Source of the DNA: a virus
Virus record (IMG/VR): IMGVR_UViG_3300033149_002817
Location: 1-64,000 of that record
DNA: 64,000 nucleotides
Strand: one strand, 5' to 3'
Positions 1-32,735 of the stretch are shown piece after piece. The position numbers and the translations under genes were made by a program. Below the pieces are notes generated by a model. It ran no database searches and was not told the origin of the DNA. It saw nothing but the letters and a program-made list of their open reading frames with translations. Within the stretch, counting starts at the first letter, position 1, and each line of letters starts with the position of its first letter.

Positions 1-543
1 ACGCATCTGCGCTGCGCGGAGATCGCGGGGCAGAAGACCATCCTGCTCAAGCCGACCACGGACAGCCGGGCGTTGCAGCTCGTGAGCACGCACGATGGGC
101 TCACGAAGCCGGCGACCGAGGTGGACCCCACCGAGGCGCTCTCTCCGACTGCGCTCGCGAAGTACGACGTCATCGGCATCGACGAGGGGCAGTTCCTCGA
201 CGGGATGTGGATCGACGTCATCGAAGACCTCGCCGACGGTGGTACCGAGGTCATCGTCGCCTGTCTCAATCAGGACTTCCGTGGTAACCCCTTCGGTATC
301 GCACCGCACTTGATGGCGATTGCGGACCGCATCGAAGCGCTTCGCGCGGTGTGCGTGGACTGCGGGAAGAAGGACAGCGCGACGCGCAGCTATCGCACGT
401 CCGAGGGTGATGATCAGGTAGAGGTCGGTGGCTCGGAGCGCTACATTGCGTTGTGCCGTCCGTGTTGGGTGGACAGGTGGGCAGAGCGACAGCGGGATGG
501 CGAGGCCGCCCCGCGCGCGACACAAGCTCAGGCGGCTGTGTAG
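1..543 (+). CDS. tk: Thymidine kinase (5'-truncated by window edge)
   Basis: Frame is open from base 1. Motifs KP..D.R...VSTHDG, VIGIDEGQF, VIVACLNQDFRGNPF, AVCVDCG, VEVGGSERYIALCRPCW are characteristic of TK1-type thymidine kinase. Confidence 0.95.
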   Translation, partial: THLRCAEIAGQKTILLKPTTDSRALQLVSTHDGLTKPATEVDPTEALSPTALAKYDVIGIDEGQFLDGMWIDVIEDLADGGTEVIVACLNQDFRGNPFGIAPHLMAIADRIEALRAVCVDCGKKDSATRSYRTSEGDDQVEVGGSERYIALCRPCWVDRWAERQRDGEAAPRATQAQAAV

Positions 544-574
544 AATAGGCGTACCGCTTGAGAAGGAGCACACG

Positions 575-3500
575 ATGGTCAACCTCGCGCAGTACCTCGC
601 CGGCAGTGTATCGCTCGAAGAGCTTGAGGAGTCGCTGCCCGTCAGCGGGGCCGGCGGCTTGATGCTGCCGAAGCCGATGACGACGCGGCACGAGAGGCTG
701 CAGCTCGCATGGCAGGATTTCAGCACGAAGCTGGAAGCCCTGTGGCTCGACGTGATGGAGACGTCCGAAGAGCTGTACATCGATGCCGCGCAGACCATCG
801 ACGAGCTGCGCAACGTCGGCTTTCAGAACCCGCGGCACGGGGTGCCAATCTTCAAGCGCTTGCAGCAGAAGGTCGCTGCGTACGCGATGAAGCCGAGCGA
901 AGAGCAGAATGCCATCCAGGTGATTGCCGCACGTCTCGGAGCGCTGAACGCTGAGCTTCTCTACATCTGCGACGAGCACGACCCGCAGATGCCGAAGCCT
1001 CCGGAGCTGCCCGCCCGCGACATGAAGACGTGGCAGAAGGATAGCGGCGTGGAGCGCTTCCCCGGCGAGCTGGGGATGTCTGATCCCGGCATCGAGGGGA
1101 TGGAACCGGAGCCCGACGACGAGGATTTGCCTCAGGATCAGCAGGTTATCTCGGCGGAGCCCGGCGAGGAGCCCGAGGGGGAGATGCCGCCCGAAGGCGA
1201 AGAGGTGCCGGGCGAGGAGCCCGACGAAGACGAGGTGCCCTACGATGCCGCCGAAGAGGAACCACAGGATGCGGAGGGAGAGCTTGCAGGAGAGGATGGA
1301 GAGGATCCGCTGGCTCCTGGGGACGAAGAGGAAGGCGCCCCGGTCGAGCCTGGTATGGAGGATCCTGACGGTGGTGAGGTGGCTCCTGAGGATGGAGAAG
1401 AGGAAGCCCCCGACGTCGAACCCGGCGAAGCACCCGACGAGGTTCCCGGAACAGAGCCCGAGCTTGCGCCTGAGCCCGGAACAGAGCCCGAGCCCGGAGT
1501 AGAGCCCGACGCCGAAGCTCCGCCCGGGGCCGAGCCCGGCGAAGAGGAGCCCGAGGCACCTCCCGAGAAGGCGGCACCGGATGGTGAGGAGCCCGAGGCG
1601 CCTCCTGAGAAGCTGAAGCCGGAGGATGGAGCGCCCGAGCCACCGTCGGGCATGGAGCCCGAGGGGATGGAGCCCGAGGGGATGCCGAAGGAGAAGCCCG
1701 AGGTACCGCCGAAGGAGAAGCCCGAGGTACCGCCGAAGGAGAAGGGCGACGAGAAGGGCGAGAAGCCCGACATAGCTCAGGTCGCGGACAAGGAACGGGG
1801 AGACGCGGACGACGCGAAGCAGGACTTCGCCGACGCGGCAGCGAAGACCGACGACGAGGAAGGGGAAGCAGAGGAGGTCGAGGGCGACCCGAAGGCTTCC
1901 CCGGAGAAGAAGGCGGACGAGAAGGACGACGTCGAGCGCGCGAAGGGTGAGGAGGTCGACGCTGCGGCGGAGGTCGAGGGTGAGGACGACGAAGCCGACT
2001 CGGCGGAGCGGTCGCTCGGGCAACAGCCGCGTGACTGGGACACCGACCGCCTGAAGAAAGCCTACGATCAGGTCAAGTCGGACCTCGGGGGCAAGGTGCC
2101 CGCGGACGAGATGCCGAAAACACCTGAGGAGCTGATCCAGCTCATCGCGCCCGACGACGGCGACGCCGGCATCATGCAGCAGGGAGCCGACGCGGACACG
2201 GGGAAGGTTGACCCGCAGCTCGCGCAGTACCTGCAGCGCGAGATCAAGAAGGGCACGCTTGGGAAGGAGCCCGACGAGGATGAGCAGCTCGGGGCTCCGC
2301 CGTCGAAGCCGAAGTCGAAGATGCCCCCGCCTGGGAAAGACATCAAGGCGGCGATGAAGATCAAGGCGAAGCGCAAGCCGGGTCGCCGGATGGAGGGGGA
2401 GCCGAAGCTCGGGGAGACGGTGAAGGCAGCTGACCCCGCGAAGGTGGATCAGGACGAGCTGGCGATGGGCACGAAGGAGGAGATGGAGCACACGACCGAC
2501 GTGAAGGTCGCGGAGCGCATCGCCTTGGAGCACCTCGCTGAAGACCCGAGCTACTACAGCAAGCTCAAGAAGGCCGGACTTGCGGAGTTCTACCGCTCTC
2601 CCGACTACTTCGGGCCGAAGGCGGAGCAGTACCTCGACGAAGTAGCGCTCGACGAGCGGGGCCTGCCCGGGGCCATGAAGGCAAAGAAGGTGCTCAAGCG
2701 TCTGCTCAAAGCCGGATGGGAGATCATTCGACAGACCGGATCGCACAAGATCCTGAAGAAGGCCACGAAGACCATCATCTTCGCGTTTCATTCAGGCGTC
2801 GAGATCGGCCGCCGGATGCTCGCGAAGCTGCAGAAGCAGACCGGCGTGAAGTTCATGGAGAACTACGCGGCGGTTGACGCTCTGCGCTACGCCATCGTCG
2901 AAGAGCAGGGTGACGTGGAGGCGTCTTTCCAGCTGGCAGCGGAGACGATCGCGGAAGCCGTGCGGCGCTACACTGACGCGAGTGATGTTCGTGGGGAGTT
3001 GGGCGTGGTTGCTCCCGGGCGTCCACCGTCCATCAACGTGTTCGCGGAGTGGCGGAGCAACGGCCGCCCGAGCGACAGCTTCGGCTTCACGCGTGTCATC
3101 CCGATCGAGGGGGCGGTGTACTTCGCGAACGCAGACGGCGTGGTCAGCGAGTCGTGGGATATCGACGAACACATCACGAACACGGAACTCGCGAACCGCG
3201 TATATGGCGCTATGAGCGAGGTTTACGACGTCTGCCCGACGCGCGTGACAGAGGATGAGAGGGTCGTACCGGCGCTCTACCGCGTCATGGAGCGAGAGCA
3301 GCGCGGAGAGAGCATCTCCGGCTACGCCTACGGTGGACTCCTTAACAGCCTTCGTTCGTCGCTGAGCATCGCAGAGGGTGTGGCTACCGCGCCTCAGCGC
3401 ATCCACGTGACGATGGCAGGCCCGCGCCGCTACTACTTCGAGTGGACGGTCCCGGCCCCCAAGAAGATCCCCGCTGTTGTGGGGACACCGGACGGCATGC

Positions 3501-4243
3501 TTGCTGAGATGCAGGACGTGCTTGGCGCTGGAAAGCTGGCGCTCAACGAGGACGCGACGGTCACGCTCGGCGGCGCGAGGGTGGGCCTCCTGAAGCATCG
3601 CCCGATGACGCCGGAGACCGTGCGGCAGGTCGCGATGTTCAAGACGCCGACCCGGGCTCAGTTCGCTGCGGGGAAGCTCGGAAGCGACTGGACTCCGGTT
3701 CACGTCTACGTTGACGACGGGTCGGAGGGCTGGGTCGTCGGCGACAAGCGGAAGGACGCGCTGTCGAAGATCGGAGCCCGGCGTATGGGTGTTGAGGAGG
3801 GGGTCATCGGGCTCTCTGCAATAGGTGGTGCCGCGTCTACGGTGTGGTGCTCACCGCCGATCAGCATCTCTCCGTCAGAGGGCTCCGTGCTGATCGGCGA
3901 CTCCGTGCTCGACAGGGACTGCTCCGATAGGGCGTTTGCCGATATCATCTCGACGCTCTCCGAGCAGCAGGACGACACGGCACACGGCTACCTGTTCGAG
4001 GACGGCCCCACCGTCCAGGTGGATCGCAAGACGCGCCTACGTGTGCAGGAGACGGGTGTGGGCGATGTGCTGGTGTCGCCGCTCGACGAGGACGAGGACG
4101 AGAGGATCCGGGAGGCGAAGGCGGCGAAGCAGAAGCTCGACCCGTACGACGTCATTCGTGCAATCGCGAACATGGAGTTCATCCCGCGTGGGCCGTTTGC
4201 GGTCCTGAGGGTGAAGCGTCACGGGACGGGACAAGGGAAGTAG
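575..4243 (+). CDS. Large modular putative internal head polyprotein: acidic E/P/G-rich region, DUF5661-like domain, HicA-like RNase domain
   Basis: AAGGAG RBS precedes ATG575. Low-complexity E/D/P tract at ~1090-2000. ELAMGTKEEMEHTTD..AERIALEHLAEDPSYYSKL resembles DUF5661. MKAKKVLKRLLKAGWEIIRQTGSHKILKK...FAFHSGVEIGRRMLAKLQKQTG matches the HicA pattern. Confidence 0.8.
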   Translation: MVNLAQYLAGSVSLEELEESLPVSGAGGLMLPKPMTTRHERLQLAWQDFSTKLEALWLDVMETSEELYIDAAQTIDELRNVGFQNPRHGVPIFKRLQQKVAAYAMKPSEEQNAIQVIAARLGALNAELLYICDEHDPQMPKPPELPARDMKTWQKDSGVERFPGELGMSDPGIEGMEPEPDDEDLPQDQQVISAEPGEEPEGEMPPEGEEVPGEEPDEDEVPYDAAEEEPQDAEGELAGEDGEDPLAPGDEEEGAPVEPGMEDPDGGEVAPEDGEEEAPDVEPGEAPDEVPGTEPELAPEPGTEPEPGVEPDAEAPPGAEPGEEEPEAPPEKAAPDGEEPEAPPEKLKPEDGAPEPPSGMEPEGMEPEGMPKEKPEVPPKEKPEVPPKEKGDEKGEKPDIAQVADKERGDADDAKQDFADAAAKTDDEEGEAEEVEGDPKASPEKKADEKDDVERAKGEEVDAAAEVEGEDDEADSAERSLGQQPRDWDTDRLKKAYDQVKSDLGGKVPADEMPKTPEELIQLIAPDDGDAGIMQQGADADTGKVDPQLAQYLQREIKKGTLGKEPDEDEQLGAPPSKPKSKMPPPGKDIKAAMKIKAKRKPGRRMEGEPKLGETVKAADPAKVDQDELAMGTKEEMEHTTDVKVAERIALEHLAEDPSYYSKLKKAGLAEFYRSPDYFGPKAEQYLDEVALDERGLPGAMKAKKVLKRLLKAGWEIIRQTGSHKILKKATKTIIFAFHSGVEIGRRMLAKLQKQTGVKFMENYAAVDALRYAIVEEQGDVEASFQLAAETIAEAVRRYTDASDVRGELGVVAPGRPPSINVFAEWRSNGRPSDSFGFTRVIPIEGAVYFANADGVVSESWDIDEHITNTELANRVYGAMSEVYDVCPTRVTEDERVVPALYRVMEREQRGESISGYAYGGLLNSLRSSLSIAEGVATAPQRIHVTMAGPRRYYFEWTVPAPKKIPAVVGTPDGMLAEMQDVLGAGKLALNEDATVTLGGARVGLLKHRPMTPETVRQVAMFKTPTRAQFAAGKLGSDWTPVHVYVDDGSEGWVVGDKRKDALSKIGARRMGVEEGVIGLSAIGGAASTVWCSPPISISPSEGSVLIGDSVLDRDCSDRAFADIISTLSEQQDDTAHGYLFEDGPTVQVDRKTRLRVQETGVGDVLVSPLDEDEDERIREAKAAKQKLDPYDVIRAIANMEFIPRGPFAVLRVKRHGTGQGK
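1652..1744 (+). repeat. In-frame short tandem repeats (15-bp x2 MEPEG; 24-bp x2.5 PKEKPEVP)
   Basis: atggagcccgagggg occurs twice, then gccgaaggagaagcccgaggtacc twice plus a partial copy. Confidence 0.85.
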
Positions 4244-4347: not shown

Positions 4348-4613
4348 GACAGCGGACCGAACCGGAGGACCGCTCGCAGCAGCTGAAGCTCGCCATCATG
4401 TCCGGCAACGTGTGGAGCGACGAGAAGCGTGCAGCCTTTGCGGAGGTACAGCAGGAGATGGCTGAACAGCACCTACCGCAGAGACGGCCGCCGACGTTCA
4501 TCTCCGTCGTGCTCTTTTTGGTCGTTCCGATTCTGGCGCTCATAGGTGTGGGCGTCACCATCACTTCCATAATGCGTGTGATAGCTTCATGTAGCGGCGC
4601 TCCGGGTCTGTAG
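4338..4613 (+). CDS. Small membrane protein
   Basis: C-terminal hydrophobic segment FISVVLFLVVPILALIGVGVTITSIM. Confidence 0.55.
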   Translation: MQIRQRTEPEDRSQQLKLAIMSGNVWSDEKRAAFAEVQQEMAEQHLPQRRPPTFISVVLFLVVPILALIGVGVTITSIMRVIASCSGAPGL

Positions 4614-6071: not shown

Positions 6072-6281
6072 ATGCTGGGTCGGAAGGAACGAGAAAAGGC
6101 GGAGCGGTGGGCGAAGCGCCTATGGGACGGACTCGGCAACTCGGAGCGGCACCAGCTCGGGGACGACCTCGTGTTCGGGTGCTTCGACTGGGGCGAGTGG
6201 TATACGCGCAAGCCCCCGCCCGGGACGTTGAACGCACTCGATAAAATGCGCTTGCACTGGGAGATCATGACGGGTGGGTGA
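6072..6281 (+). CDS. Small hypothetical protein
   Basis: AAGGAG RBS before ATG6072; lies directly after promoter copy 2. Confidence 0.6.
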   Translation: MLGRKEREKAERWAKRLWDGLGNSERHQLGDDLVFGCFDWGEWYTRKPPPGTLNALDKMRLHWEIMTGG

Positions 6282-6951
6282 GAAGCAACCGCAGGGGAGC
6301 AAGACCCTACGGAACATACAAACGATGGCGGCTGCGATGCTGCCATCGTTCGCGCTTGTAGGTGGCAAGCGCGGTACGAAGGCCGTCACCGACCGCGTCT
6401 TCACCTGTCAGTACCCGAAATGCGCGGCGAGGGCAGCTCACTCGTGCGGCATTGGCAAAAGCTACCAGAGTGATCGCTACTTGGACGGGTGGCTCCTGTG
6501 CCGGAGTCACTACATGACCGTTAGGAGCATGTACCTCTACGACAGGAATTTGAAGCGCAACCGATGGTGGAAGAGCTGCGTGTCGCTCTCTGATGACGTC
6601 GTTCGTGAGGAGGCGGAGAGCATCGGTTTTTCTGACGAGCGGTTTCGCGAGATAGACTGCGACGACGTCATGAACGCCGTTGATGAGGCCCTACTCGACT
6701 GCTTATCTCGGCGGGACGCGTTCATCGTGTCCGAGCGCCTGTTCGGTAGCTTGAAGCTATGGCAGGTTGGCAACAGGACAGCCATAAGCCGTGAGCGGGT
6801 TCGACAGGTCGAGATCGCGGGGTACGAGAAGCTCAAATGGTGGCTGCGGAGCCATCGGCCGGACCTCTACTTGGTGCTTTGCGAGCCGGGCATGGAACGA
6901 GATCGCATGGAGGATCAGATCGTGCGGAGGCGGGTGCCTGAACTTGAGTAG
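6274..6951 (+). CDS. Sigma70 region-4 HTH-containing transcription factor (start uncertain)
   Basis: LDCLSRRDAFIVSERL...LWQVGNRTAISRERVRQVEIAGYEKLK matches sigma70 region 4.2 (SRERVRQIE). N-terminal Cys/His cluster; no clear region 2. Confidence 0.75.
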   Translation: MGEKQPQGSKTLRNIQTMAAAMLPSFALVGGKRGTKAVTDRVFTCQYPKCAARAAHSCGIGKSYQSDRYLDGWLLCRSHYMTVRSMYLYDRNLKRNRWWKSCVSLSDDVVREEAESIGFSDERFREIDCDDVMNAVDEALLDCLSRRDAFIVSERLFGSLKLWQVGNRTAISRERVRQVEIAGYEKLKWWLRSHRPDLYLVLCEPGMERDRMEDQIVRRRVPELE

Positions 6952-6968
6952 ATTTCATGCTTTTCTAC

Positions 6969-7015
6969 TTGATTTCGTGGCCTCAACATCGTACTATAAT
7001 AGTGGAGCGAGTGAG
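6969..7015 (+). promoter_or_regulatory. Repeated sigma70-type promoter, copy 3
   Basis: TTGATT-N17-TACTAT(AAT), then AGTGGAGCGAGTGAG. Confidence 0.75.
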
Positions 7016-7030
7016 TTACGGGGGCAAGAA

Positions 7031-7273
7031 ATGAAGCGAGCGGTTGTTCTGGTTCTGGTTGCGCTGGCGGCGGTGCTCGGTGAGACGAGCTATCGCATCG
7101 TGGTGCAGGGACCGGTTGCGCTTCAGGTGTTCGTGCTCGTCACGGTTGTCCGGTACGCTGTGGAGCGTGTCAGGTTGGAAGTTACTGTTCGTGGTTCGTT
7201 CGGGGCGGTTCTCGCCGCCGAGTGGGCGAAGACGGTTGGGCGGGAGCCGGAGCCGGTTCTCACCGTGGCATGA
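7031..7273 (+). CDS. Small hydrophobic hypothetical protein
   Basis: ATG follows promoter copy 3 and a GGGGGCAAGAA leader similar to the one at ~4708. MKRAVVLVLVALAAVLG is signal/TM-like. Confidence 0.55.
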   Translation: MKRAVVLVLVALAAVLGETSYRIVVQGPVALQVFVLVTVVRYAVERVRLEVTVRGSFGAVLAAEWAKTVGREPEPVLTVA

Positions 7274-7284
7274 GAAGGTGCAAA

Positions 7285-7509
7285 ATGAGTGACGCTAAGG
7301 ACGACAAGGTTTCTTTCGCGGGGGCCGCGGAGCTGGCTGCGGAGCTGGCAGACGAAGCAGTCTTCGGGCACTGCGACGGCCCGCCGCCGACTGAGGAGGA
7401 CAAGGCGAGACGGCAGAAGCTGGAAGCAGAAGTGAGGGCGCGCGGGCTGTCTGCGTACGACGAAATGGTCGTGGAAGCCGAGAAGAACAGGCCGCGGTAC
7501 GGGTTTTAG
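7285..7509 (+). CDS. Small hypothetical protein
   Basis: AAGGTG RBS, ATG7285, typical codon usage. Confidence 0.6.
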   Translation: MSDAKDDKVSFAGAAELAAELADEAVFGHCDGPPPTEEDKARRQKLEAEVRARGLSAYDEMVVEAEKNRPRYGF

Positions 7510-7654
7510 GGCGTGTAGTGTGATAGACCGAAGCATTCCTGCGTGGTACGCTACGATCTGACGGTAGTACGGCATCCCGACACATACGTGTGTGGTCATA
7601 AGGTGCGTGTCTGTATGTGTTAGAGTAGGGTGACAACCACGTAGGGGGCTTTCC

Positions 7655-10141
7655 ATGCGACCGGAGCATCTCGACGTCATTCTTGAGCGTGTCGGTGCGG
7701 CGATGCAGGGCAACGCTGTAGCCGAAGCGCAGCAGAGCGTCGATGAGGTAGACAGAGGCTTCGAGTCGTTTGAGGAAGGCACGCGGGCGGAGCAGTTTCG
7801 CTGCAAAGCGCTGTTTTCTGGGGGTGGGTCTGGCTCTGGTAAGGGTTTTGTTCTGGACAACACCGTCCGCGGCCTCGGGCTTCGTATCCTCAACTCCGAT
7901 GACGTCCTTGAGGCGCTTGCGGCAAGCCCGGTCACGCGTGAGCGCTTGCAGAAGAAGCGCGACGCGAAGGGTGCAGAGGGCGACATCACCGGGAAAGGCT
8001 ACGGTCGTCGTGGCGCCGTGATCGACCTCAAGACCGAGCTGATGGGCAAGTTCGTCCAGAAGGAGCTGCGCCCCTACTCGAAGCGTCGGTACAAGAACAA
8101 AGCGCATATGACGATGGACCGCCGCAACGGTCTCGTCTTCGACGTGACCGGTGCCAACCTCGGGACCATCCAGAAGTTCTATAAGGAGCTTACTGAGCGG
8201 GGTTACGACTGCGGGATGATCTTCGTCAGTGTGAAGATTCCGACTGCGCAGACGCGTGACCTCAAGCGTAAGCGTTCGCTCGGCCCGGAAGAGGTCGAGA
8301 AAGTTCACATCAAGGCTAACGCCAACGTCTCGAAGCTGGCTCAGCTGTTCGGTGCGGAGAATTTTCGCATCGTGGTGAACGAGAATGTCAGGGGTACGAA
8401 GCGGCCGACGGCGAAGAAGGACCGCTCCCTTCCCGAGGCAATCCGTAGCGGCGCGACGATGATGCGTGCTGTCAAAGGGCGGAAAGCGCAGCAGCAGGCT
8501 ACGGTCAGCTCCGACCAGTGGACCATCAACCAGCAGCTCATACTGCAGAAGTTCAAGGACGCTCGTAGTTGGGCGACGAAGTGGCTCAAGAGGCCCATCC
8601 GGAACCCCGTCGGCAAGGCGTACCTTGCGAGCCTGAAGGAGGCGGTTGCCGCGGACGCGGGGCTCGTCGAGAAGGCGGAGATGTACGTCGTCTACCGCAA
8701 GGACGGCACCGGCTTCATCTACGAGCAGATGTTCTACGACCAGCTGACTGCTCGGGCGTTCGCACGTCGCATCAAGGGCTCCGTCATCATGGACCCGGCG
8801 AAGGTGCCCGACAGGATCGGCAACCTCTCGCAGCTCGGCGGGAGCGTGGTCGAGGGGGCGGGGGTGCTCAACGAGTGGGGGTATCGGCAGCAGCGTCGCA
8901 CGAAGACCCTCAGCCGTCCGGCCGACGAGATCGCGAAGGCTCTCTCGTTTGAGGCCGCTGTCGTGTTGTTCGGGAGCACGCAGTTCAAGTCTCCCAAGTA
9001 CAAGCTCGCGCAGGAAAGCTTTCGTCTACGCATCTCGAAGGCTGAGTGGGAGAAGGGTCGTAAGGAGCTGACGGGTCACGGCATAGCCAACAAGGCGGGG
9101 AACGTCACCTACAAGCTCGCAACTCCGGTGCGCACCGAGTTGGAGAAGATCGTCGGGGCGCGGACGGACTTCCGGCTTGGGATGGCGCTGACGAAGCACT
9201 ACAACCGCTCGAAGGCGTTCATGGGCGACCCGTGGGATAATGCCGAGAAGCGTCGGTTCGACCTGAGGGACGGTCACTGGTACAGCACCGGCGACTACAA
9301 GCCCCTCCCGGAGGCGGCCGACATCGACGAGCGCGGCTACAAGGCCAACCCGAAGGCATACGCGCAGGCGATGGCGAAGGCCGGAGCGAAGCCTTCCCGT
9401 GTTTGGTTGACCGTCGCAAACCTCGTGCAGTCGGCGGCGAAGAAGATGGGGAACGCTGTTCGCAACATGTCAGACGAGAAGGAGCGTGCCGCGTCGCTCG
9501 GACCCCTGAACACGATTCTGGACCTGACCGATGTTTCTATGGCTACTCAGGCATCGCGCTCGCATCGTGCTGAGACGGTCAAGCAGGTAGCTGCAGCGCG
9601 GGACGCAGCGCAGCGTAGTGGTTCACCGCTCTACTCCGCGCTCAACGACCTCTATCGCAAGATCCGCGCGACGACGTACAACGAGTCGGCCGAAGACCTC
9701 GACGAGTTCTTCTGGCGGAAGCGCGACAAGGGCAAGTTCGCGGCGAAGGGGCAGGGTCAGGAGCCCGCGCCACGCAAGAAGGTACGCTCGAACATCGCCA
9801 GCGACGACTACGCGAAGGCGCTTGCTCAGGCGAAGTCCGACCCGCGCTACAAGGACGAGCTGAAGCACAAGCTCGCGAAGGCGGAGAGCGCGAACGACCG
9901 CACCGGCGTCGAGCTGACGGAGCCGGCGGGACTCGTCAAGCCCGGTCAGGAAGGCGAGTGGAAGCGCGCGAAGGCGGCAGCTTCCCAGCAGTACCCGGGC
10001 ATGGAGGCGAAGGACAAGGACCGCTTCTACGCCGTCACGAACACGATCTTCGGATCGATGACCGGGCGGAGGAAAGAGGAGAGCATGACAGAGCGCACTG
10101 CCAACCTCCTCACCGAGCGGATGACCGGCATCCGGGGGTAG
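7655..10141 (+). CDS. Modular putative internal head polyprotein with N-terminal zeta-toxin-like P-loop kinase
   Basis: KALFSGGGSGSGKGFV (Walker A), ILNSDD, GLVFDVTG and MIFVSVKIPTAQTRDLKRKRSL give the zeta/AAA_33-type kinase pattern. Several basic modules follow, separated by LxE/VxE motifs. Confidence 0.8.
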   Translation: MRPEHLDVILERVGAAMQGNAVAEAQQSVDEVDRGFESFEEGTRAEQFRCKALFSGGGSGSGKGFVLDNTVRGLGLRILNSDDVLEALAASPVTRERLQKKRDAKGAEGDITGKGYGRRGAVIDLKTELMGKFVQKELRPYSKRRYKNKAHMTMDRRNGLVFDVTGANLGTIQKFYKELTERGYDCGMIFVSVKIPTAQTRDLKRKRSLGPEEVEKVHIKANANVSKLAQLFGAENFRIVVNENVRGTKRPTAKKDRSLPEAIRSGATMMRAVKGRKAQQQATVSSDQWTINQQLILQKFKDARSWATKWLKRPIRNPVGKAYLASLKEAVAADAGLVEKAEMYVVYRKDGTGFIYEQMFYDQLTARAFARRIKGSVIMDPAKVPDRIGNLSQLGGSVVEGAGVLNEWGYRQQRRTKTLSRPADEIAKALSFEAAVVLFGSTQFKSPKYKLAQESFRLRISKAEWEKGRKELTGHGIANKAGNVTYKLATPVRTELEKIVGARTDFRLGMALTKHYNRSKAFMGDPWDNAEKRRFDLRDGHWYSTGDYKPLPEAADIDERGYKANPKAYAQAMAKAGAKPSRVWLTVANLVQSAAKKMGNAVRNMSDEKERAASLGPLNTILDLTDVSMATQASRSHRAETVKQVAAARDAAQRSGSPLYSALNDLYRKIRATTYNESAEDLDEFFWRKRDKGKFAAKGQGQEPAPRKKVRSNIASDDYAKALAQAKSDPRYKDELKHKLAKAESANDRTGVELTEPAGLVKPGQEGEWKRAKAAASQQYPGMEAKDKDRFYAVTNTIFGSMTGRRKEESMTERTANLLTERMTGIRG

Positions 10142-10145
10142 TGCG

Positions 10146-13100
10146 ATGCCCGAGCTGACCGAACGACAGGAAGTTCTCGACGACGCCGCGATCAAGCGGA
10201 TGCGGAAGGACTACCTGATGCTGATGCGGAACATCGACCGCGTCACGTCTCCGCGGGCGCACGCGGTCCTGAAGAAAGGCGCGAAGACCTTCGCTCAGCA
10301 CCTCGTAGAACTCATCGTCGGTGACTGGTTCGACACGGCCGACGCGCCTATCAAGACGATCCTCCTGAAGCACAACGTCCCGGAGCGGGAAGCGAAGGCG
10401 GTGCAGCAGCTTGCTCAGAAAGCGCTGTACATGCTGGAACACGAGCTGACGATGATCCCGGATTGGCAGGATTGGGGGGAGGCGTCGCGCAAGGGGGCGA
10501 AAGCGTCAGACTCAGTCCGATGGCGGAAGCGGGTCGATAAGCACGCTCGTCAGGTCTGGAAGGACTTGGACTACGTCTCCAAGTACGTCAAGCGCGTCAG
10601 CGGGTCCACGCCGGTCGTCGGGAAGGCAGAGACGAGCTTCGACGTCGCGGGCATCCCGGTTCGCGTCACGGGGACGCTGAAGTACCCGGATGCGTTCCGT
10701 ACGGGGATGAAGGACGCGGTTCAGCGGATCAAGAAGGTACTCCCGTGGGCGATGCGGTACCGCCTCCCGGTACAGATCATCGACATGGACATGAGGGCAG
10801 ACGGCACGTACAACCGTGCAACGAAGCTCATCCGTATGTCGCACTGGTTGCACGAACCGCGCCGCGTGTCTCAGGTGTACGTTCACGAGATGGGGCATCA
10901 CCTCTGGCAGCAGCTCGGGCAGGACGCGAAGGACTACTACCGCGCGGCCGGGAACGCGAACGCGAAGAAGCTGAGCGTCCGCAAGCTGCTCGATGAGTGG
11001 CCCGAGGGCGCTCTCGGTCTGCTCGGGTACGCGAGGCAGCTTGAGAACTCTGATCCCATCCTCTCCGTGCAGCTGCAGTCGATCGAGATGGGTTACGCGT
11101 CGCGCTCTGCGTCGGACAAGACAAGCCTATTGACGCTTCTCGATCGTGGTGTAGAGCACATTACGGTCGACGGGCACCCGGTGACGTACTACGCCGCAAA
11201 GAACTCGGAAGAGAACTTCTGCGAGGTACTCGGGGCGCTCATCTCGTTCGGTCCGCGCACCGTTCACCCGCTCGTCAAGGCGCTCATGAAGCACGTACTC
11301 GGCTCCCGCTTGAAGCTCTCGGAGGCGACGATGGACACAACCGCGCCCACGAAGGCTCCGTGGCATTCCTGCACGGATTGCGACTACGGTATTCCCAAGT
11401 ACGTGGGCCGCTACCCCCAACATTGCCCGAACTGCGGATGCAAGCTCGGGGGCCAGTCGGGCTACCCGAGCATGAAGCGGCGCCTCCCGACGCGCACCGC
11501 GGACCCGGGGCCGGGCATTCCCCTTGAGGAGCGCGCAGCCTTCGAGGCGTGCATGCACGACGTAGCGCGTGGGGTGAGCTTCCCCGGCGTCACTTACACG
11601 CTCACGGAGGGCGGCGTTGCGGCGTTCCGCTACGCGCCCGACCACCTCGCGATCACGCCGACGGTCATCCGCGTCTCGCTCGACGAGGTCAGCATCCCGG
11701 CAGTCGAGGCGGAGGTCATCAAGCTCGCCGAGACGGTCGACACGCTGATGGTTGATAGCGCCATCGATGAGGGCACGCTGTCAGAGAGAAGGCAGGCCGT
11801 ACTGTCGACGAAGCACTTCGACAAGATGCGCACCGAGTGGAAGCGTATGTTGAAGCCACTCTTCACGAAGGGGCGCGGTACGCTTGAGACCGAGGCGGCG
11901 GACTCCGTCTACGCGGGAAAGTTCGAGGAGTTCGTGCGGGCGTCGTTCGAGTTTCTGGCGCACGAAGTTCCGGTTCTCCCTTCGTTGATATGGTGGTACG
12001 AAAAAGCCGACAACATCACGGGGCCGGCGAAGGCGATAGCGGATAAGTTCGCGGGCGCTTACCTGTGGTCCGAGACGTTCTACAAGCGCAAGTCTGTTCG
12101 TCCCGCGGAGGACTACAAGAAGTTCTACGGAGGCAAGGCGGAGAAGTTCCTGGAGATGTTCGTGAAGCTCCGCAGGGCTGTCGAACACTCGGGGTTTACG
12201 CTCGACAGCTGTAGGCTTATGGGAAAGGCTTCGACCCGCAACATCGATCTCGACATCAAGTACAACAACGTCTTTCGTGAGCACCTTTGGAAACTGTGGC
12301 AGGAACGCGACCCGAGCAGCTTCGATAAGAACGTGAAGAACTTCTTCGCCGGCCCGCACGACGAATCTGCACGTGAGCCGATGGCGGAGTACGCGAAGAC
12401 GCTACCTCGCGAGCTGACCGACTTGAAGTACCAGGACGTTGAGACGAGGCACGTAGACCTTGAGCACGCGGGGAAAGCGGTTCTCGCGAAGCTCGACAAG
12501 GTTCTCAAGTTCTTGAAGGGTGGCGTTGCGACTGCGAGCTATCCCGAGTACATGATGAAGCAGATCGCTACGCAGAACCTCGGTCGTGAGAAAGTGCGTG
12601 GTGAGAAGCTTGCGGTAACGGCGGACGTCGTGCGCGGGAACGACAACGTCGCCGGCTTCCGTGTCGAGAACGACATAGGGCTTCCGCGTCACGCTTGGGA
12701 GAGCTTTGCGAAGGTAGTAGCTCTCGTAGCACGTGGGTTGAAGCGTAAGGGTCTCGGCTTCCTCATCAAGCGCGTGGTCGTTCACGTCAAACCAAAAACC
12801 ATGCGCACGTTCACCGTCAAGGATACTGGAGAGAAGAGCCTGTATGGTGGCTCCTACAACCTGTCTCCCGGGTACGACATGTTGGATCTCAAGTATGGAA
12901 TGAGAACAGATCCGAGTTCAAAGCAGAAGCTCAGTAAGAGCACGCCGACGGCGAAGGGCAAGGGCGTCGTCGTCATGAACTACGACACCGCCAGCATACC
13001 GTCTGAGCAGGACGTGGCGCGCATCTTCACACACGAGATCGGGCATCACTACTACTTCGCTTTCCTGCCGCCGAAGGCTCGCGCCGCCTACCGGCACTTC

Positions 13101-16100
13101 TTTGGTTTGGCAACCAGCTTCCCGTCAGCCTACGCGAAGAGCCAGGCGATCGAGGACTTCGCCGAAATCTTCACGGCATGGGTGCTGAAGGGCACTGGGC
13201 TGATGAAGACCGGCGAGTACAAGCCGCTCGACGACGACATGATGCAACGCTTCCGCGGTGCGATTCGTCTCGATCCGGCCGCGAAGGGCGTCAAGCTCGC
13301 CGAAACGGTCGGCACGCTGATGGTGGACGACGTCACCGATGAGGACATGCTGCTCGACCCGCGCACGAAGCTGCCGGTCCCGTCGGCGGAGCCGCTTGCA
13401 GAGAGGGCGGCGCTGTCGACCACGTTCTTCAACAAGGTGCGGACCCTGTGGAAGCAGGAGCTGAAGCCGCTGCTCATGAAGGGGCACGGCACGACGCACA
13501 CCGCGGACGAAGATGACGCGGCGGCATCCGGCTTGAAGTCGTTCTCGGCGACGGCGTTTGCGTTTCTCACGCATGAGGCTCCGATCCTGCCTACGCTTTC
13601 ATGGTGGTACGACGACTACACAAGCAAGGCTGCGCTGACGGCCATCCATGACAAGTTCGCCGGGGAGAACCTGTGGTACACCAAGATGCGTGGCGATGCG
13701 GACAAGTTCTACGCGGATAAGGCGAAGCGCTTCACCGAGCTATTCCAGCAGTTCCGCGAGGCGCTCAACAGCGGGTTGACGCAGCTGCAGTATGCGAAGG
13801 GCTCGACGCGTCCGCAGGTACTCGCTTACTTCGCGAAGCAGGCGATGAGCGACAACGAGCAGCGCAAGAAGGCATGGGCGTTTTGGAAGCGGGCGCATCC
13901 GAAGCGCTTCGCGCGAGAGACTGCCGTCTTGGACGGACCGATGGATGAGACGCAGGATCATCTGTTCATCGACTACATGATCGAGATGTTCAGGGAGCAG
14001 ACACGCTCTGCACTCGACGACTCCGATCGCCGGCACACAGAGCTGAAGACCGCGGGCGACGTCATCCTCAGCTCGATCGACGTGCTCTTCAAGTTCCTGA
14101 AGGACGGCATCGCTACGTCCGGCTATCACACGGGCGCGCAGGCGGAGATCGCGCAGAAGTTCCTGGGCCGGGACGTGAAGAAGGGCGAGAAGCTCGCGGT
14201 TACGAGCGACGTCGTGCGTGGGAACGACAACGTCGCCGGCTTCCGTGTCGAGAACGACGCCGGTTTGGAGAAGTCCACTTGGGAGGGCTTCTCCAAGGTG
14301 TTGGCTCTCATCGCTCGCGGGCTGAAGCGCAGAGGGCTGGGCTTCTTGGTGAAGCGCGCGACCGTGACCGTTCGCCCGCGCAAGGGGAAGACGGTCAACG
14401 TGATGGCGACCGGCGATGACTCGGCTCAGGGGGGCTCCTACAAGTTTGGCGGGCTTGACGCTCCTTCGGCAACGGCTCCTGCGAAGGCGCGGCCGTACCG
14501 TCCGAGCAGCCCGACGACTACGGGGAAGGGCGCCATCTCGCTGTTCGTTGACGAGGTGTACCGGATGCCCGCGCGCGACATAGCGGTCGTCTTCACGCAT
14601 GAGCTTGGGCACCACTACTACTTCGCCTTCCTGCCGCCGAAGTCGCGTGAGGCGTACAAGGTCTTCTTCCAGCGTGCGACGAGCTTCCCGACCGCGTACG
14701 CGAAGAACAACGCAGGCGAGGACTTCGCCGAAATCTTCACAGCGCTGGTGCTGAAGGGCACCGGATTGATGAAGACGGGTCACTACAAGCCGCTCGACAA
14801 CGACATGATGCAGCGCTTTAAGGCTGCCATCGACATGGACCCGAAGGCGAAGAGCGTCAAGCTGGGCGAGTCCTTCGAGGAAAGTCTCTGGGAGCGCGTG
14901 AAGGATTCGCTTGGGATGCCGCGCTCCAAGATGCCGCAGATTCGCTCGGATCTCGTGCCGGAGTTCCTGGAGTTCCTGGGCGGGAACGACGTCAAGGTCA
15001 CGCGCAGGACGATGCCGGCAAACCGTCTCAAGCCGACGCAGAACGAGCTGAACAAGTCGAAGCTCGACTACATGGTGACGAAGGGGGTGAAGCAGCTTCT
15101 CAAGCCGATGATCGTGTCGTCTGACCACTACGTCCTTGACGGACACCATCGGCTTGGCGCTCTGCGGGTGAAGAATCCGAAGGCAGAGGTGCCGGTCATC
15201 GTGGTCGACCTGCACATCATGCGGCTGCTTCAGGTCGCGCACAAGTTCGCGAAGGTCGGGTACAAGAAGCTTAGCGAGGCGATCGGCGGACCGAACCCGG
15301 TTCCGACGGTGAACCCGAAGGCGGACTCGGCGGACGTCCCGGTTGCTCCGACGGACAGCACCGGCGTCGGCTCGTCGTTCAACGCAGCGCTTGGCGTGAA
15401 CGAAGCGGAAGGCATCTTGCAGAGGCTCAAGAGCAAGACGAAGTTCGTGCTCAAGGTGCTCCGGAACGCGAAGATCGGCTTCGCGAGTGTGACGCCGACG
15501 GCTCGCGCCGACAACCCGGCCGACAAACCGCTGCAGCTCAACTTCTTCAGCCCGCAGATGAAGCCGAACCCGATCCCGCACATCTACGTCGCGAACGCGG
15601 CCGACGCTTTCCGTCAGCTGCTCGGGCTGGGCATCCGGGAGCCGCAGCTCGCCGTCCACATGGTGACGGAAGCGGCGACGATGGCGTTCCTTCGTGACGC
15701 GTGGCTGCTGGAGAGCAAGCGTACGAAGTACAAGTCGGCCATCGCGGTCGTCGTGAAGAACCGCGTGAAGGGGCCGGCGGAAGTGCTCATCGGCAAGGCG
15801 TCGGACACCGGAGACGACCGCACCGGTACGTGGTGTCTCCCTGGCGGGGGCATCTCCCCGGACGACGATGACGAGCACGACGCCGCCGCGCGCGAGGCGT
15901 GGGAAGAGATGGGTGTCACGGCAACGCCCACCGGCAAGAGCGTCGAGATGCCGGGGCGGCCGGGCATCATCTTCTGCTACCTCGATTACGTCGAAGGCGA
16001 CCCGAAACCGAACGCGGAGTTCACGGCGGCGAAATGGCTGCCGGTCGCGGACGCGTGGAAGACGAAGGGGCTCTACAGCACGACGGAGCCCCTCATTCAG

Positions 16101-16640
16101 CGCCTCAGCGGCGAGATGAAGGTGACGGAAGCTTTCCCGACACGTAAGAGCAAGCCGGCGAACACGGGCGGCCGGTCGCTCGTCGGCGGGGAGCCGGCTG
16201 CGACGGAAAAGAAGCCCGGCAACAGCTTCGAGACGGACGACAAGAAGGACAACGCCTTCGACCCCGCGGACCGCGACAAGACGGGGACCGTATCGCAGGA
16301 CGACGCGCGTGCGGAGAAGAAGCTCGACATGCCGGATCAGGCGAGCGACGAGCTTGACCCGGCGGAGAGCGACGAGATGCAACAGGACGGACAGCAGCCC
16401 GGCGAGGAAGGACCGCCGCAGCCGGGGCAGCCGGCGACTCCGACCGGGCCGAAGAGCATCATGTTGCGCTTCCCTGACATGTCGATGGCGTCTGACGCTG
16501 ACCAGTGGTTCAAGTCAATGAACGTCGATACGCAGCTTGACGGTATCGAACTCACGGCCACAGCTAAGGATGCGACCGATCTGGAGGTCATTTCTCGTAC
16601 TGCGACAGCGTACGGGTTGGAGCTTTCGGACGCGGCGTAG
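10146..16640 (+). CDS. 2164-aa polyvalent protein: three HEXXH zincin metallopeptidase modules, Zn ribbon, ParB/Srx-like domain, Nudix hydrolase
   Basis: HEMGHH...YAAKNSEENFCE; CTDC...CPNC; HEIGHH...YAKSQAIEDFAE; HELGHH...YAKNNAGEDFAE; LKPTQNE...PMIVSSDHYVLDGHHR; WCLPGGG...AAAREAWEEMG. Confidence 0.88.
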   Translation: MPELTERQEVLDDAAIKRMRKDYLMLMRNIDRVTSPRAHAVLKKGAKTFAQHLVELIVGDWFDTADAPIKTILLKHNVPEREAKAVQQLAQKALYMLEHELTMIPDWQDWGEASRKGAKASDSVRWRKRVDKHARQVWKDLDYVSKYVKRVSGSTPVVGKAETSFDVAGIPVRVTGTLKYPDAFRTGMKDAVQRIKKVLPWAMRYRLPVQIIDMDMRADGTYNRATKLIRMSHWLHEPRRVSQVYVHEMGHHLWQQLGQDAKDYYRAAGNANAKKLSVRKLLDEWPEGALGLLGYARQLENSDPILSVQLQSIEMGYASRSASDKTSLLTLLDRGVEHITVDGHPVTYYAAKNSEENFCEVLGALISFGPRTVHPLVKALMKHVLGSRLKLSEATMDTTAPTKAPWHSCTDCDYGIPKYVGRYPQHCPNCGCKLGGQSGYPSMKRRLPTRTADPGPGIPLEERAAFEACMHDVARGVSFPGVTYTLTEGGVAAFRYAPDHLAITPTVIRVSLDEVSIPAVEAEVIKLAETVDTLMVDSAIDEGTLSERRQAVLSTKHFDKMRTEWKRMLKPLFTKGRGTLETEAADSVYAGKFEEFVRASFEFLAHEVPVLPSLIWWYEKADNITGPAKAIADKFAGAYLWSETFYKRKSVRPAEDYKKFYGGKAEKFLEMFVKLRRAVEHSGFTLDSCRLMGKASTRNIDLDIKYNNVFREHLWKLWQERDPSSFDKNVKNFFAGPHDESAREPMAEYAKTLPRELTDLKYQDVETRHVDLEHAGKAVLAKLDKVLKFLKGGVATASYPEYMMKQIATQNLGREKVRGEKLAVTADVVRGNDNVAGFRVENDIGLPRHAWESFAKVVALVARGLKRKGLGFLIKRVVVHVKPKTMRTFTVKDTGEKSLYGGSYNLSPGYDMLDLKYGMRTDPSSKQKLSKSTPTAKGKGVVVMNYDTASIPSEQDVARIFTHEIGHHYYFAFLPPKARAAYRHFFGLATSFPSAYAKSQAIEDFAEIFTAWVLKGTGLMKTGEYKPLDDDMMQRFRGAIRLDPAAKGVKLAETVGTLMVDDVTDEDMLLDPRTKLPVPSAEPLAERAALSTTFFNKVRTLWKQELKPLLMKGHGTTHTADEDDAAASGLKSFSATAFAFLTHEAPILPTLSWWYDDYTSKAALTAIHDKFAGENLWYTKMRGDADKFYADKAKRFTELFQQFREALNSGLTQLQYAKGSTRPQVLAYFAKQAMSDNEQRKKAWAFWKRAHPKRFARETAVLDGPMDETQDHLFIDYMIEMFREQTRSALDDSDRRHTELKTAGDVILSSIDVLFKFLKDGIATSGYHTGAQAEIAQKFLGRDVKKGEKLAVTSDVVRGNDNVAGFRVENDAGLEKSTWEGFSKVLALIARGLKRRGLGFLVKRATVTVRPRKGKTVNVMATGDDSAQGGSYKFGGLDAPSATAPAKARPYRPSSPTTTGKGAISLFVDEVYRMPARDIAVVFTHELGHHYYFAFLPPKSREAYKVFFQRATSFPTAYAKNNAGEDFAEIFTALVLKGTGLMKTGHYKPLDNDMMQRFKAAIDMDPKAKSVKLGESFEESLWERVKDSLGMPRSKMPQIRSDLVPEFLEFLGGNDVKVTRRTMPANRLKPTQNELNKSKLDYMVTKGVKQLLKPMIVSSDHYVLDGHHRLGALRVKNPKAEVPVIVVDLHIMRLLQVAHKFAKVGYKKLSEAIGGPNPVPTVNPKADSADVPVAPTDSTGVGSSFNAALGVNEAEGILQRLKSKTKFVLKVLRNAKIGFASVTPTARADNPADKPLQLNFFSPQMKPNPIPHIYVANAADAFRQLLGLGIREPQLAVHMVTEAATMAFLRDAWLLESKRTKYKSAIAVVVKNRVKGPAEVLIGKASDTGDDRTGTWCLPGGGISPDDDDEHDAAAREAWEEMGVTATPTGKSVEMPGRPGIIFCYLDYVEGDPKPNAEFTAAKWLPVADAWKTKGLYSTTEPLIQRLSGEMKVTEAFPTRKSKPANTGGRSLVGGEPAATEKKPGNSFETDDKKDNAFDPADRDKTGTVSQDDARAEKKLDMPDQASDELDPAESDEMQQDGQQPGEEGPPQPGQPATPTGPKSIMLRFPDMSMASDADQWFKSMNVDTQLDGIELTATAKDATDLEVISRTATAYGLELSDAA
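11721..14870 (+). repeat. Diverged tandem duplication (~1.57 kb x2) of a zincin module within the 2164-aa gene
   Basis: Units start with KLAETV(D/G)TLMVD at 11721 and 13293. A ~50-bp block (DVVRGNDNVAGFRVEND) is near-identical at ~12624 and ~14208. Both end KPLD.DMMQRF...D.P.AK.VKL.E. Confidence 0.9.
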
Positions 16641-28222: not shown

Positions 28223-28674
28223 TCGGCCGACGCGCGGCACGACCGGCGACTGCGTTCATCGACCCGAAGGCGAAGAGCCAAGGTCGCCGACCGCATCAGA
28301 GGCATGAAGGGGTGTATCTTTTCAAGCGTGCTGCGCACGACACGACCATCGACATGTACGAGCCTCCGACGGCGGACGGCTTTGTCGAGAGCTACGTGCT
28401 GGAGCACTTCGACGCGGAGCTGCTTCTGGCGATCGTGCTCAAGCTGACAGAGCAAGAGATCATCGACTTGATGGACCGCTTGTACAACTTCCGCGCGGTC
28501 ACGTTCAACACGCGGACACGGGCTATCGTCGTGCGACGTGACACGTGGGCGCGGCCCCACAACGAGGACTTGCTCGCTCTGCCTCCGGTTGACGTGTCGG
28601 AGCGTCTCGATCGGTCGCTTACCGGACTTGTGAGTCACATGCAGGCGCTCGCGCCACAGAAGGAGACAGCGTGA
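28219..28674 (+). CDS. Hypothetical protein upstream of prohead protease
   Basis: Translationally coupled on both sides. Confidence 0.6.
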   Translation: MIGRRAARPATAFIDPKAKSQGRRPHQRHEGVYLFKRAAHDTTIDMYEPPTADGFVESYVLEHFDAELLLAIVLKLTEQEIIDLMDRLYNFRAVTFNTRTRAIVVRRDTWARPHNEDLLALPPVDVSERLDRSLTGLVSHMQALAPQKETA

Positions 28675-31343: not shown

Positions 31344-32735
31344 ATGGGTGACAACCCGTACGCCACGATGGAGGACGTCGTTGCGAAGGGGGAGATGCTT
31401 GCCGAGAGCAAGTGGGCTCCGCTCGTCAAGGGGCTCGAAGGGCTCGACAAGGCGCACACGGCGGTGCTGCTGGAGAACACCGCGAGGTGGGTCAACAGCA
31501 TCGACGAGACCACGCGCGCTGTCAACGTGGGCAACTTCGACCGCTTCGCCTTCCCGCTCGTCCGCGCCGTCGTCCCGAGTCTCGTCTCGCAGGATCTCGT
31601 CAGCGTCCAGCCGATGGACGGACCTGTCGGGCTCATCTTCTACTTCGACCTGATCTACGGGTCCAACAAGGGCCGCATCCGCGCCGGCACCCCCGTCTTC
31701 AGCTCGCTGACGGGACACCCCGGTGACGATTTCTACAGCTCGCCGCGGATCGAGGAGGAGGCCATTGCCACGGGCAACGGCGCCACCGCGAACTACACCG
31801 GCACGCTCGACTACACCCCGTGTGTCCCCGGAACGCTGCAGATCACTGACGGCGCGCTCAGTGCGCAGGACGACGGTCAGGGCAACCTGATCGGCGACAT
31901 CGTCGCTGGCGGCGTGAACACCGTCAACTACAGCACGGGCGCCTTCGATGTCACCTTCTCGGCGAACATCGCGGCCAACAACCCGATCGTCGCGAACTAC
32001 GAGTACGACAACGAAGCGAACAGCCAGGTTCCCGAGATCGACTTCCAGCTGACGTCGGCCCCGGTCGTCGCCAAGATTTTCAAGCTCCGCACCCGCTACA
32101 GCCTGGAGGCTGCTCAGAACCTCCGCGCGCTGCACGGGCTCTCCGCGGAGACCGAGCTGGTCGTCGCGCTCGCGCAGGATCTCCGCTTCGAGATCGACCG
32201 TACCATCATCAAGGAAGTCAACCAGTTCGCGCAGGCCACCTCGGTCAGCTGGCCCCTCACCCCGTCGGCGGGCGTGTCGTGGACGGAGCACAAGCTCAGC
32301 TTCGTCGACAAGCTCATCGAGGGCTCGAACAACGTGTTCGAGCTGACGCGGCGCGGCAACCCGAACTGGTGCGTGGTCGGGCTCAAGGTCTCCAACGTCA
32401 TCGAGAGCCTCCCCGGCTTCAAGCCCTCGGGCGCGATGTCGAACCCGGTCGGCGTCATCTACGCGGGTGACCTCAACGGCCGGTGGAGGATCTACAAGGA
32501 TCCGTACAACATCGACGGCACCGCGACGCAGCGCAACTTCCTCATCGGCTACAAGGGCTCGACGTTCCTGGAGGCCGGCTTCGTGTACGCGCCCTACATC
32601 CCGTTCTACACGACGCCGACCGTCATCCTCGACGACTTCCTCGCGAGGAAGGGCATGGCGACGCAGTGGGCGCGCCGGAAGGTCAACGGGCGCTTCTACT
32701 GCCGCGGCACCGTCTCCGGCAACTTCGCCCCGTAG
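31344..32735 (+). CDS. Major capsid protein (T4 gp23-like)
   Basis: KW..L..GL...TAVLLEN, FPLVRAV.PSL...DLVSVQPMDGPVGLIFY, EAAQNLRALHG, EIDRTII, GYKGSTFLEAGFVYAPYIP, RKGMATQWA. Confidence 0.97.
   Translation: MGDNPYATMEDVVAKGEMLAESKWAPLVKGLEGLDKAHTAVLLENTARWVNSIDETTRAVNVGNFDRFAFPLVRAVVPSLVSQDLVSVQPMDGPVGLIFYFDLIYGSNKGRIRAGTPVFSSLTGHPGDDFYSSPRIEEEAIATGNGATANYTGTLDYTPCVPGTLQITDGALSAQDDGQGNLIGDIVAGGVNTVNYSTGAFDVTFSANIAANNPIVANYEYDNEANSQVPEIDFQLTSAPVVAKIFKLRTRYSLEAAQNLRALHGLSAETELVVALAQDLRFEIDRTIIKEVNQFAQATSVSWPLTPSAGVSWTEHKLSFVDKLIEGSNNVFELTRRGNPNWCVVGLKVSNVIESLPGFKPSGAMSNPVGVIYAGDLNGRWRIYKDPYNIDGTATQRNFLIGYKGSTFLEAGFVYAPYIPFYTTPTVILDDFLARKGMATQWARRKVNGRFYCRGTVSGNFAP

Follow-up and report, generated by a model that had tools for sequence, protein, structure and literature searches.

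A HicA toxin domain without a detected HicB antitoxin in a modular scaffold protein of a large uncultured T4-like phage

The stretch of DNA analysed here (the window) comprises the first 64 kb of a 95,584-bp viral record in IMG/VR (IMGVR_UViG_3300033149_002817), which is rated 44% complete by CheckV. The window is approximately 65% G+C, all genes assigned in this analysis are located on the plus strand, and the source is a large uncultured T4-like phage. Near the beginning of the window there is a gene for a modular protein of 1222 amino acids that carries a HicA toxin domain as one of its internal modules, and it is this domain and its unusual carrier that are described below. Residues are numbered according to P0002, the 1271-amino-acid translation of the open frame at 428-4243, wherein residue r starts at nucleotide 428+3(r-1) and the 1222-amino-acid protein corresponds to residues 50-1271. 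An orthologue of this protein, P0153, is encoded on a metagenome contig and serves as the main point of comparison. The gene and its parts are as follows.

575-4243, plus strand: gene for the modular protein of 1222 amino acids, assigned from a continuous frame rich in G+C at third codon positions (GC3), a ribosome-binding site and the start of the orthologue
575-1102, plus strand: N-terminal helical scaffold domain (P0002 residues 50-225) with a near-invariant L14-x-E16, common to about 25 representative proteins
1148-2107, plus strand: acidic, Pro/Glu-rich low-complexity linker of about 320 amino acids, variable, recognized from the translation and from family comparison
2438-2572, plus strand: DUF5661 module (PF18905; Pfam E 1e-11, residues 671-715)
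2657-2860, plus strand: HicA module (Pfam core 2684-2848), with A-L-D-E before it and K-F-M-E at its end, recognized by Pfam, PHROG, six-frame search, profile alignment and an AlphaFold (AF2) model
2744-2746, plus strand: codon for the predicted catalytic His of the G-S-H motif (His773 of P0002, which is His724 of the 1222-amino-acid protein), aligned to HicA3 (4p78)
2864-3517, plus strand: alpha/beta scaffold domain C1 (P0002 residues 813-1030), defined by per-domain search
3518-4240, plus strand: C-terminal scaffold region C2, partly conserved in the family and 72% identical to the orthologue

Public gene calls for this locus are in conflict, with a 1222-amino-acid product in the ESM Atlas and a 710-amino-acid product (P0003) that begins at an internal Met codon at nucleotide 2111. 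The GC3 value remains at 0.8-0.9 from about position 575 through the stop at 4243, which indicates a single coding frame. In addition, a putative ribosome-binding site, AAGGAG, is located 7 nucleotides upstream of the ATG at 575, and this ATG aligns with the first Met codon of P0153. Because these three features agree, we assign the gene to 575-4243, which upholds the protein size of 1222 amino acids given in an earlier note on this DNA that was made from the sequence alone. The internal Met codon of P0003 lacks a convincing ribosome-binding site, and the shorter call is probably a gene-caller artefact caused by the acidic low-complexity stretch.

The earlier note had described a complete HicA pattern, including G-S-H, as a discrete module within the giant protein, and had proposed a search with the HicA_toxin hidden Markov model. 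The peptide in question, which runs from ALDE-RGLPGAM through VKFME, is the plus-strand translation of 2645-2860. PF07927 (HicA_toxin) matches this excised piece with an E-value of 2.4e-13 (50.4 bits) and matches the whole protein at P0002 residues 753-807 with an E-value of 1.5e-11 (44.7 bits). Both scores are well above the Pfam cut-off for this family (27 bits), and the match spans positions 2-58 of the 58 profile positions. PHROG 353, annotated as 'toxin', also matches (E 1e-12), and a six-frame family search of the whole record reveals one HicA only, at 2684-2848, with 50 bits. Thus, the proposed model search comes out in favour of HicA at 44.7-50.4 bits, and the description of a discrete module is borne out by its L-D-E and F-M-E borders, which are conserved in the orthologue.

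Structural comparisons lead to the same assignment. A profile that combines the domain with its orthologue and eight small relatives matches the solved toxins Yersinia HicA3 (4p78) and TTHA1913 (1whz), and the G-S-H motifs align. The AF2 model of the domain, made from the profile alignment, has a predicted local distance difference test (pLDDT) score of 83 and secondary structure elements in the order H-E-E-E-(E)-H. The seven best Foldseek matches of this model in the PDB are all solved HicA structures (6g26, 4p78, 1whz, 4c26, 5yrz and 6hpb), with probabilities of 0.99-1.00, root-mean-square deviations of 1.5-2.4 A, and template modelling (TM) scores of 0.62-0.72 by query and 0.66-0.84 by target. 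The domain is therefore a genuine HicA with an alpha-beta3-alpha fold like that of double-stranded RNA-binding domains (dsRBDs) and with the catalytic His. When the 72-amino-acid piece was used in a single-sequence phmmer search, the sole PDB matches were designed helical repeat proteins, which are spurious; a profile is needed to find the relatives of this domain.

The orthologue P0153 is a protein of 1672 amino acids encoded at positions 6350-11368 of a 61-kb contig (locus L004). The gene order is the same at both loci, namely a thymidine kinase gene, the gene for the modular protein, an open reading frame (ORF) of 432 codons, a kinase protein gene and a giant ORF. P0153 is 72% identical to P0002 over the last 617 residues and 67% identical over the N-terminal domain, and DUF5661 and HicA occur at the same places in both proteins. 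Between the two orthologues, the HicA domain exhibits 84% protein identity, a synonymous divergence (dS) of 0.53 and a ratio of nonsynonymous to synonymous divergence (dN/dS) of 0.20. The conserved scaffold domains have the same ratio (0.19-0.21), which argues that selection maintains HicA and that the module is not an insertion undergoing decay. The linker is the least conserved part of the protein, with 53% identity and a dN/dS of 0.31. P0153 additionally carries a topoisomerase IB catalytic core of the eukaryotic or poxvirus type (PF01028, E 1.6e-13; L004:8855-9466), which has no counterpart in the window protein. This core is inserted after a basic region and ahead of DUF5661, with I-G-E on one side and L-T-E on the other.

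This HicA module recurs, with about 65% identity, in P0019, a protein of 615 amino acids that is unrelated outside the module and for which HicA is the only Pfam match. The sequence L-V-E directly precedes the R-G-I-P-G start of the module, and V-L-E is present at its end. Here too the module is internal. It follows a region whose G-S...D-x-D pattern recalls that of nucleotidyltransferases, and it precedes a further unknown domain.

The G-S-H motif is invariant in an alignment of the domain with its orthologue and closest relatives. Both orthologues, P0019 and the closest free-standing toxins all retain this motif and a second conserved His (F-A-F-H) without exception. This pattern of conservation suggests that the module is a catalytically active RNase, which we consider probable. 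One alternative is that the domain no longer cuts RNA, and that its fold tethers the protein to RNA, or to nucleic acid within the phage head. The HicA fold does resemble that of dsRBDs (PMC10865869), and inactive, toxin-derived RNA-binding modules have been discussed for MuF proteins (PMC5512222). However, two invariant His motifs are what would be expected of an active enzyme, and a purely RNA-binding role appears improbable.

There is no sign of a HicB partner. The HicB families PF15919 and PF05534 yield no match in the 95,584-bp record, even at an E-value of 1. A profile of 50 cognate HicBs, built from the antitoxins of the closest bacterial HicAs, likewise finds no HicB when all six frames of the record and of locus L004 are searched, and its best score (E 0.089) lies inside another gene on the opposite strand. 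The earlier note had reported no HicB in the 64 kb and had suggested that the rest of the genome be searched; its statement holds for the window and extends to the entire 95.6-kb record, which is 44% complete. The simplest reason for the missing antitoxin would be that a lytic-type phage need not protect its host from the toxin.

The closest relatives of the module are found in bacteria. A scan of one genome per prokaryotic species revealed more than 550 loci from many phyla with relatives that are 46-60% identical, most of which are genes of about 70 codons. In 60 of the 68 loci examined, hicA is preceded by a short ORF of 50 amino acids or more (typically 66-92) whose end coincides with the hicA start or lies slightly upstream of it; usually the two overlap by 4 nucleotides. 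Eight of ten such upstream ORFs have matches to UPF0150, HicB_lk_antitox or the related DUF7387, mostly below the Pfam cut-off. Because a short HicB-like ORF overlaps hicA from upstream, we interpret these relatives as compact hicBA pairs. Beyond the protein itself, a scan of IMG/VR with the HicA alignment found members of this HicA clade only as two stand-alone genes of 75-77 codons, and there is no member among 50,697 cultured phage records. The best explanation of these sequence relationships is that the toxin part of a compact bacterial hicBA pair was acquired without the antitoxin, and that the present module is its descendant.

This ancestry also bears on a proposal of the earlier note, which is that the domain may act as a decoy for host HicAB systems. 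Such a decoy could occupy HicB antitoxins of the host or disturb these systems in another way. The domain is 46-60% identical to toxins encoded in bacterial hicBA pairs, and it might conceivably bind the HicB of some host. Yet sequestration of HicB would free the host toxin and favour abortive infection, which harms the phage, and a decoy has no need of the retained catalytic His. No precedent was found in the literature searched, and none of the results requires a decoy. We therefore disfavour the decoy idea and regard it as the least probable of the explanations considered.

The remainder of the 1222-amino-acid protein represents a separate family. An exhaustive search, which covered 1.84 billion representative proteins, and a per-domain comparison identified about 25 representative clusters that share the N-terminal domain, the C1 domain that directly follows HicA, and part of C2. 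In the per-domain search, C1 matches P0004 through P0025 with E-values down to 2e-41. The region between the N-terminal domain and C1 is charged and highly variable in length and sequence across the family, and L14 and E16 are each at least 90% conserved in 22 members. In other members, it is the linker or the C-terminus of this scaffold that carries DUF5661, zeta/AAA_33-type kinase, NUDIX or DUF5710 modules. As judged from these comparisons of sequence, the scaffold represents a previously undescribed phage protein family with a variable effector slot. The presence of several unrelated effector-type domains, and the shuffled architectures among relatives, are those of a polyvalent-type protein.

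DNA and protein searches of the 50,697 cultured phage records recovered no relative of the region; the scaffold family is absent from these records, and the whole protein gives DUF5661 matches only. The scaffold family alignment found no relative in IMG/VR, a word-indexed protein search returned the protein itself as its sole match, and the ESM Atlas provided no usable match for the C-terminal part. The shortest relative, P0004, could be modelled with confidence over residues 20-420, and its structural model depicts a four-helix bundle followed by an alpha/beta domain. This scaffold model has no significant Foldseek match in the PDB or BFVD, and VIA-align with the same model gave generic four-helix-bundle matches to the N-terminal domain only, with C1 barely covered. 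Thus, no known fold match was found for the modelled C1 domain, and we do not claim that its fold is new.

DUF5661 is a module of about 50 amino acids with unusually strong conservation, in that it is 50-70% identical among thousands of proteins that have no relationship elsewhere. It carries the invariant motifs E-x-E-H-T and D-H-L, and it is often the terminal part of small proteins that end in K-A-G-L. This pattern of His, Asp and Glu residues might reflect metal binding. Our literature search found no paper on DUF5661.

Fused toxin-antitoxin proteins can be kept off in cis until a trigger arrives, as is the case for CapRel. By analogy, the protein could be a self-contained toxin-antitoxin or exclusion device, wherein DUF5661 or C1 restrains HicA. 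DUF5661 precedes HicA in both orthologues, and fused HicA-HicB proteins exist (classes 11-13; PMC10865869). However, no HicB-like sequence was found in any frame of the record or of L004, and P0019 has the HicA module without DUF5661 or C1. Moreover, both of these domains are very widespread without HicA, and we reject either as a dedicated antitoxin. A fused device of this kind seems very improbable.

On balance, and with somewhat less assurance than we attach to RNase activity itself, we favour the view that this locus encodes a genuine, probably active HicA RNase module, free of antitoxin and housed in a polyvalent or cargo-type phage scaffold protein, which probably acts against host RNA. 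HicA would be one of several interchangeable effectors (HicA, DUF5661, topoisomerase IB, zeta-like kinase and NUDIX) on a conserved scaffold. Most likely, the module cuts host RNA in the infected cell, and would thereby bring about shut-off or weaken an RNA-dependent response of the host.

How such a module might reach its target can be considered in light of the genes located nearby, which include the following.

4458-4613: ORF of 51 amino acids downstream of the gene for the 1222-amino-acid protein, strongly hydrophobic, probably membrane-spanning and not HicB-like
6274-6951: ORF located between the genes for the giant proteins; sigma-70 region 4 domain (PF04545, E 2e-6)
7655-10141, plus strand: neighbouring protein of 828 amino acids with a zeta/AAA_33-type P-loop kinase (Pfam)
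10146-16640, plus strand: neighbouring protein of 2164 amino acids with metallopeptidase-like regions and a C-terminal NUDIX domain (Pfam, E 3e-15)
28674-31298, plus strand: T4 gp21-type prohead protease that carries a long C-terminal extension (Peptidase_S77, 65.5 bits at 28857-29330; PHROG 207, E 4e-37)
31344-32735, plus strand: T4 gp23-like major capsid protein (PHROG 138, E 1e-59)

The capsid protein has only about 39% identity to its best cultured relatives. The Zeta_toxin match of the neighbouring kinase is weak (26 bits), and this kinase shares 37% identity (E 1e-27) with the one fused at the C-terminus of the scaffold family member P0009. Such kinase-scaffold fusions in other phages (P0009 and P0017) link the two neighbouring genes. 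The 2164-amino-acid protein is another polyvalent-type giant in the same cluster.

Among the possible routes of delivery, the likeliest would be that the protein enters the prohead as a precursor, that this precursor is cut at hydrophobic-x-Glu borders by the T4-type protease of the phage, and that the freed module is ejected together with the phage DNA. The earlier note had inferred a similar route, wherein the domain may be held inactive in the precursor, and such inactivity is likewise a conjecture. The indications of packaging are circumstantial. The S77 protease and the gp23-like capsid protein are encoded 24-27 kb downstream on the same strand. A module of 140 amino acids is common to the 828-amino-acid kinase protein (residues ~557-685) and to the C-terminal extension of the protease ORF (residues ~322-461), with 34% identity and an E-value of 1e-10. 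This shared module links a neighbouring giant protein to one that resides in the prohead. DUF5661 is present in all 40 of the larger proteins scanned, where its companions include crAss cargo, XkdF-type head protease, Mom, NUDIX, 2H phosphoesterase/Acb1, GNAT and others. Because this set of companions is the repertoire of polyvalent and cargo proteins (PMC5512222), it counts in favour of packaging.

The borders of the modules provide a further indication. In the two orthologues, DUF5661 is preceded by L-G-E or L-T-E and followed by L-A-E or L-G-E, and HicA is preceded by L-D-E and ends with F-M-E in both. The topoisomerase core inserted in P0153 is flanked by motifs of the same kind. There are no hydrophobic-x-Glu motifs within HicA itself. 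Proteases of the T4 gp21 type cut after the Glu of Leu/Ile-x-Glu, at sites that are followed by small residues. The L14-x-E16 sequence near the N-terminus, conserved in 22 family members, is a candidate site for capsid targeting or cleavage.

Several observations weigh against this scheme. The residues that follow the putative cuts (T, F, R and N) are not small. Motifs of the form [LIVMFY]-x-E are frequent, and because there are 30 of them in the protein, including two inside DUF5661, the border motifs are only suggestive. The scaffold matches no known virion protein, and no portal or terminase gene was located. In both orthologues, a thymidine kinase gene immediately precedes the gene, and the head genes are 24 kb away. 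Thus, the term 'head region' that the earlier note applied to this protein is a loose label, since the head protease and capsid genes lie 24 kb downstream, while its account of a giant protein with an embedded HicA is retained. With regard to the RNase itself, activity is predicted from conservation alone, and with about 44% of the genome in the record, a hicB gene could be present in the remainder. Weighing these points, we consider packaging of the protein in the capsid to be a possibility that falls somewhat short of an even chance. Cutting at the module borders by the T4-type head protease is a still more tentative proposal. Equally tentative is the complete scheme, wherein HicA is capsid cargo that is freed at L-x-E borders and injected as an antitoxin-free RNase that acts before phage gene expression.

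The position of the gene also raises another possibility, which is that the protein is not in the virion and instead serves as an intracellular host-takeover factor expressed from a thymidine kinase operon. HicA would then degrade host or early phage messages in the manner of RegB. Only 31 nucleotides separate the thymidine kinase stop from the ATG at 575, and one promoter-like site is present inside the end of the thymidine kinase gene; a k-mer search for a promoter shared upstream of the genes revealed nothing useful. The adjacency of thymidine kinase is kept at the orthologous locus L004 and is absent from the more distant locus L002. The ORF at 6274-6951 may encode a phage sigma-like factor, which would also be in keeping with an intracellular role, as would a scaffold that lacks similarity to any structural protein. 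On the other hand, all genes in the window, including the structural genes, are on the same strand, and so gene position says little about the timing of expression. Moreover, the modules concerned (DUF5661, kinase, NUDIX and topoisomerase) occur with head protease, crAss cargo and portal-type fusions, and the neighbouring kinase protein shares its module with the head-protease ORF. We consider this explanation to be rather unlikely, although it is far more credible than the RNA tether, the fused device or the decoy.

The arrangement can be compared with several known systems. T4 RegB is a small early endoribonuclease of RelE-like fold. Both RegB and the predicted RNase described here are phage proteins with a fold related to the toxins of toxin-antitoxin systems, and neither is accompanied by an antitoxin; unlike the module in this phage, RegB is neither a HicA nor part of a multi-domain protein. 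The T4 internal proteins IPI-III and Alt have a capsid targeting sequence and are processed by gp21. The present phage similarly has T4-type protease and capsid genes, and the protein has L-x-E near its N-terminus and hydrophobic-x-Glu at the borders of its modules. However, the T4 proteins are small, whereas the protein described here is giant and largely acidic, is encoded outside the block of head genes, and has a targeting sequence that is only putative.

Alt is described in a study of the polyvalent proteins of phages and conjugative elements (Iyer, Burroughs, Anand, de Souza, Aravind 2017, PMC5512222), which include toxin-derived RNase modules (PBECR) and are predicted to be packaged and transferred. 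The protein described here likewise is a large phage protein composed of unrelated effector modules and is encoded beside other giants that carry kinase, metallopeptidase and NUDIX domains. It differs in that its scaffold is a family of its own rather than MuF, portal or zincin-like metallopeptidase. Its packaging is putative. Polyvalent proteins are encoded with a portal-terminase packaging system (PMC5512222). The MuF polymorphic toxins of temperate phages (Jamet et al. 2017, PMC5576092) also combine a conserved phage scaffold with variable toxin modules. Their toxin is C-terminal and is usually followed by a small immunity gene, whereas no immunity gene is evident here. HicA is mentioned 0 times in either paper (PMC5512222 and PMC5576092).

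Among HicA proteins, the nearest counterparts are the toxins of compact hicBA pairs (class 2 of Gerdes 2024, PMC10865869), which have the same Pfam family, alpha-beta-beta-beta-alpha fold and G-S-H motif. Those toxins are free-standing proteins of 60-70 amino acids, whereas the domain described here is an internal module of a 1222-amino-acid phage protein for which no HicB was found. The same survey lists 14 genetic contexts of HicA, and none of these is a large phage protein (PMC10865869). Our full-text literature searches found no description of an arrangement that combines HicA with polyvalent proteins or virion packaging.

HicA toxins are now viewed mainly as components of bacterial anti-phage defence. 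Here, a phage keeps a HicA of its own under purifying selection, without an antitoxin, as a plug-in of a multi-effector protein. Should the module prove to be active and to be delivered, this would indicate that phages recruit the toxins of toxin-antitoxin systems as offensive tools. HicA would then join the effectors of polyvalent proteins, which would constitute a fifteenth genetic context beyond the fourteen of the 2024 survey, and the scaffold would define a family whose variable slot could be mined for effectors. If the capsid-cargo scheme is true, the scaffold would be a new carrier for swappable injected effectors, including an RNase, topoisomerase IB, kinase and NUDIX. Even if the protein is only expressed within the cell, this locus would still be a clear example of a toxin that a lytic-type phage has domesticated.

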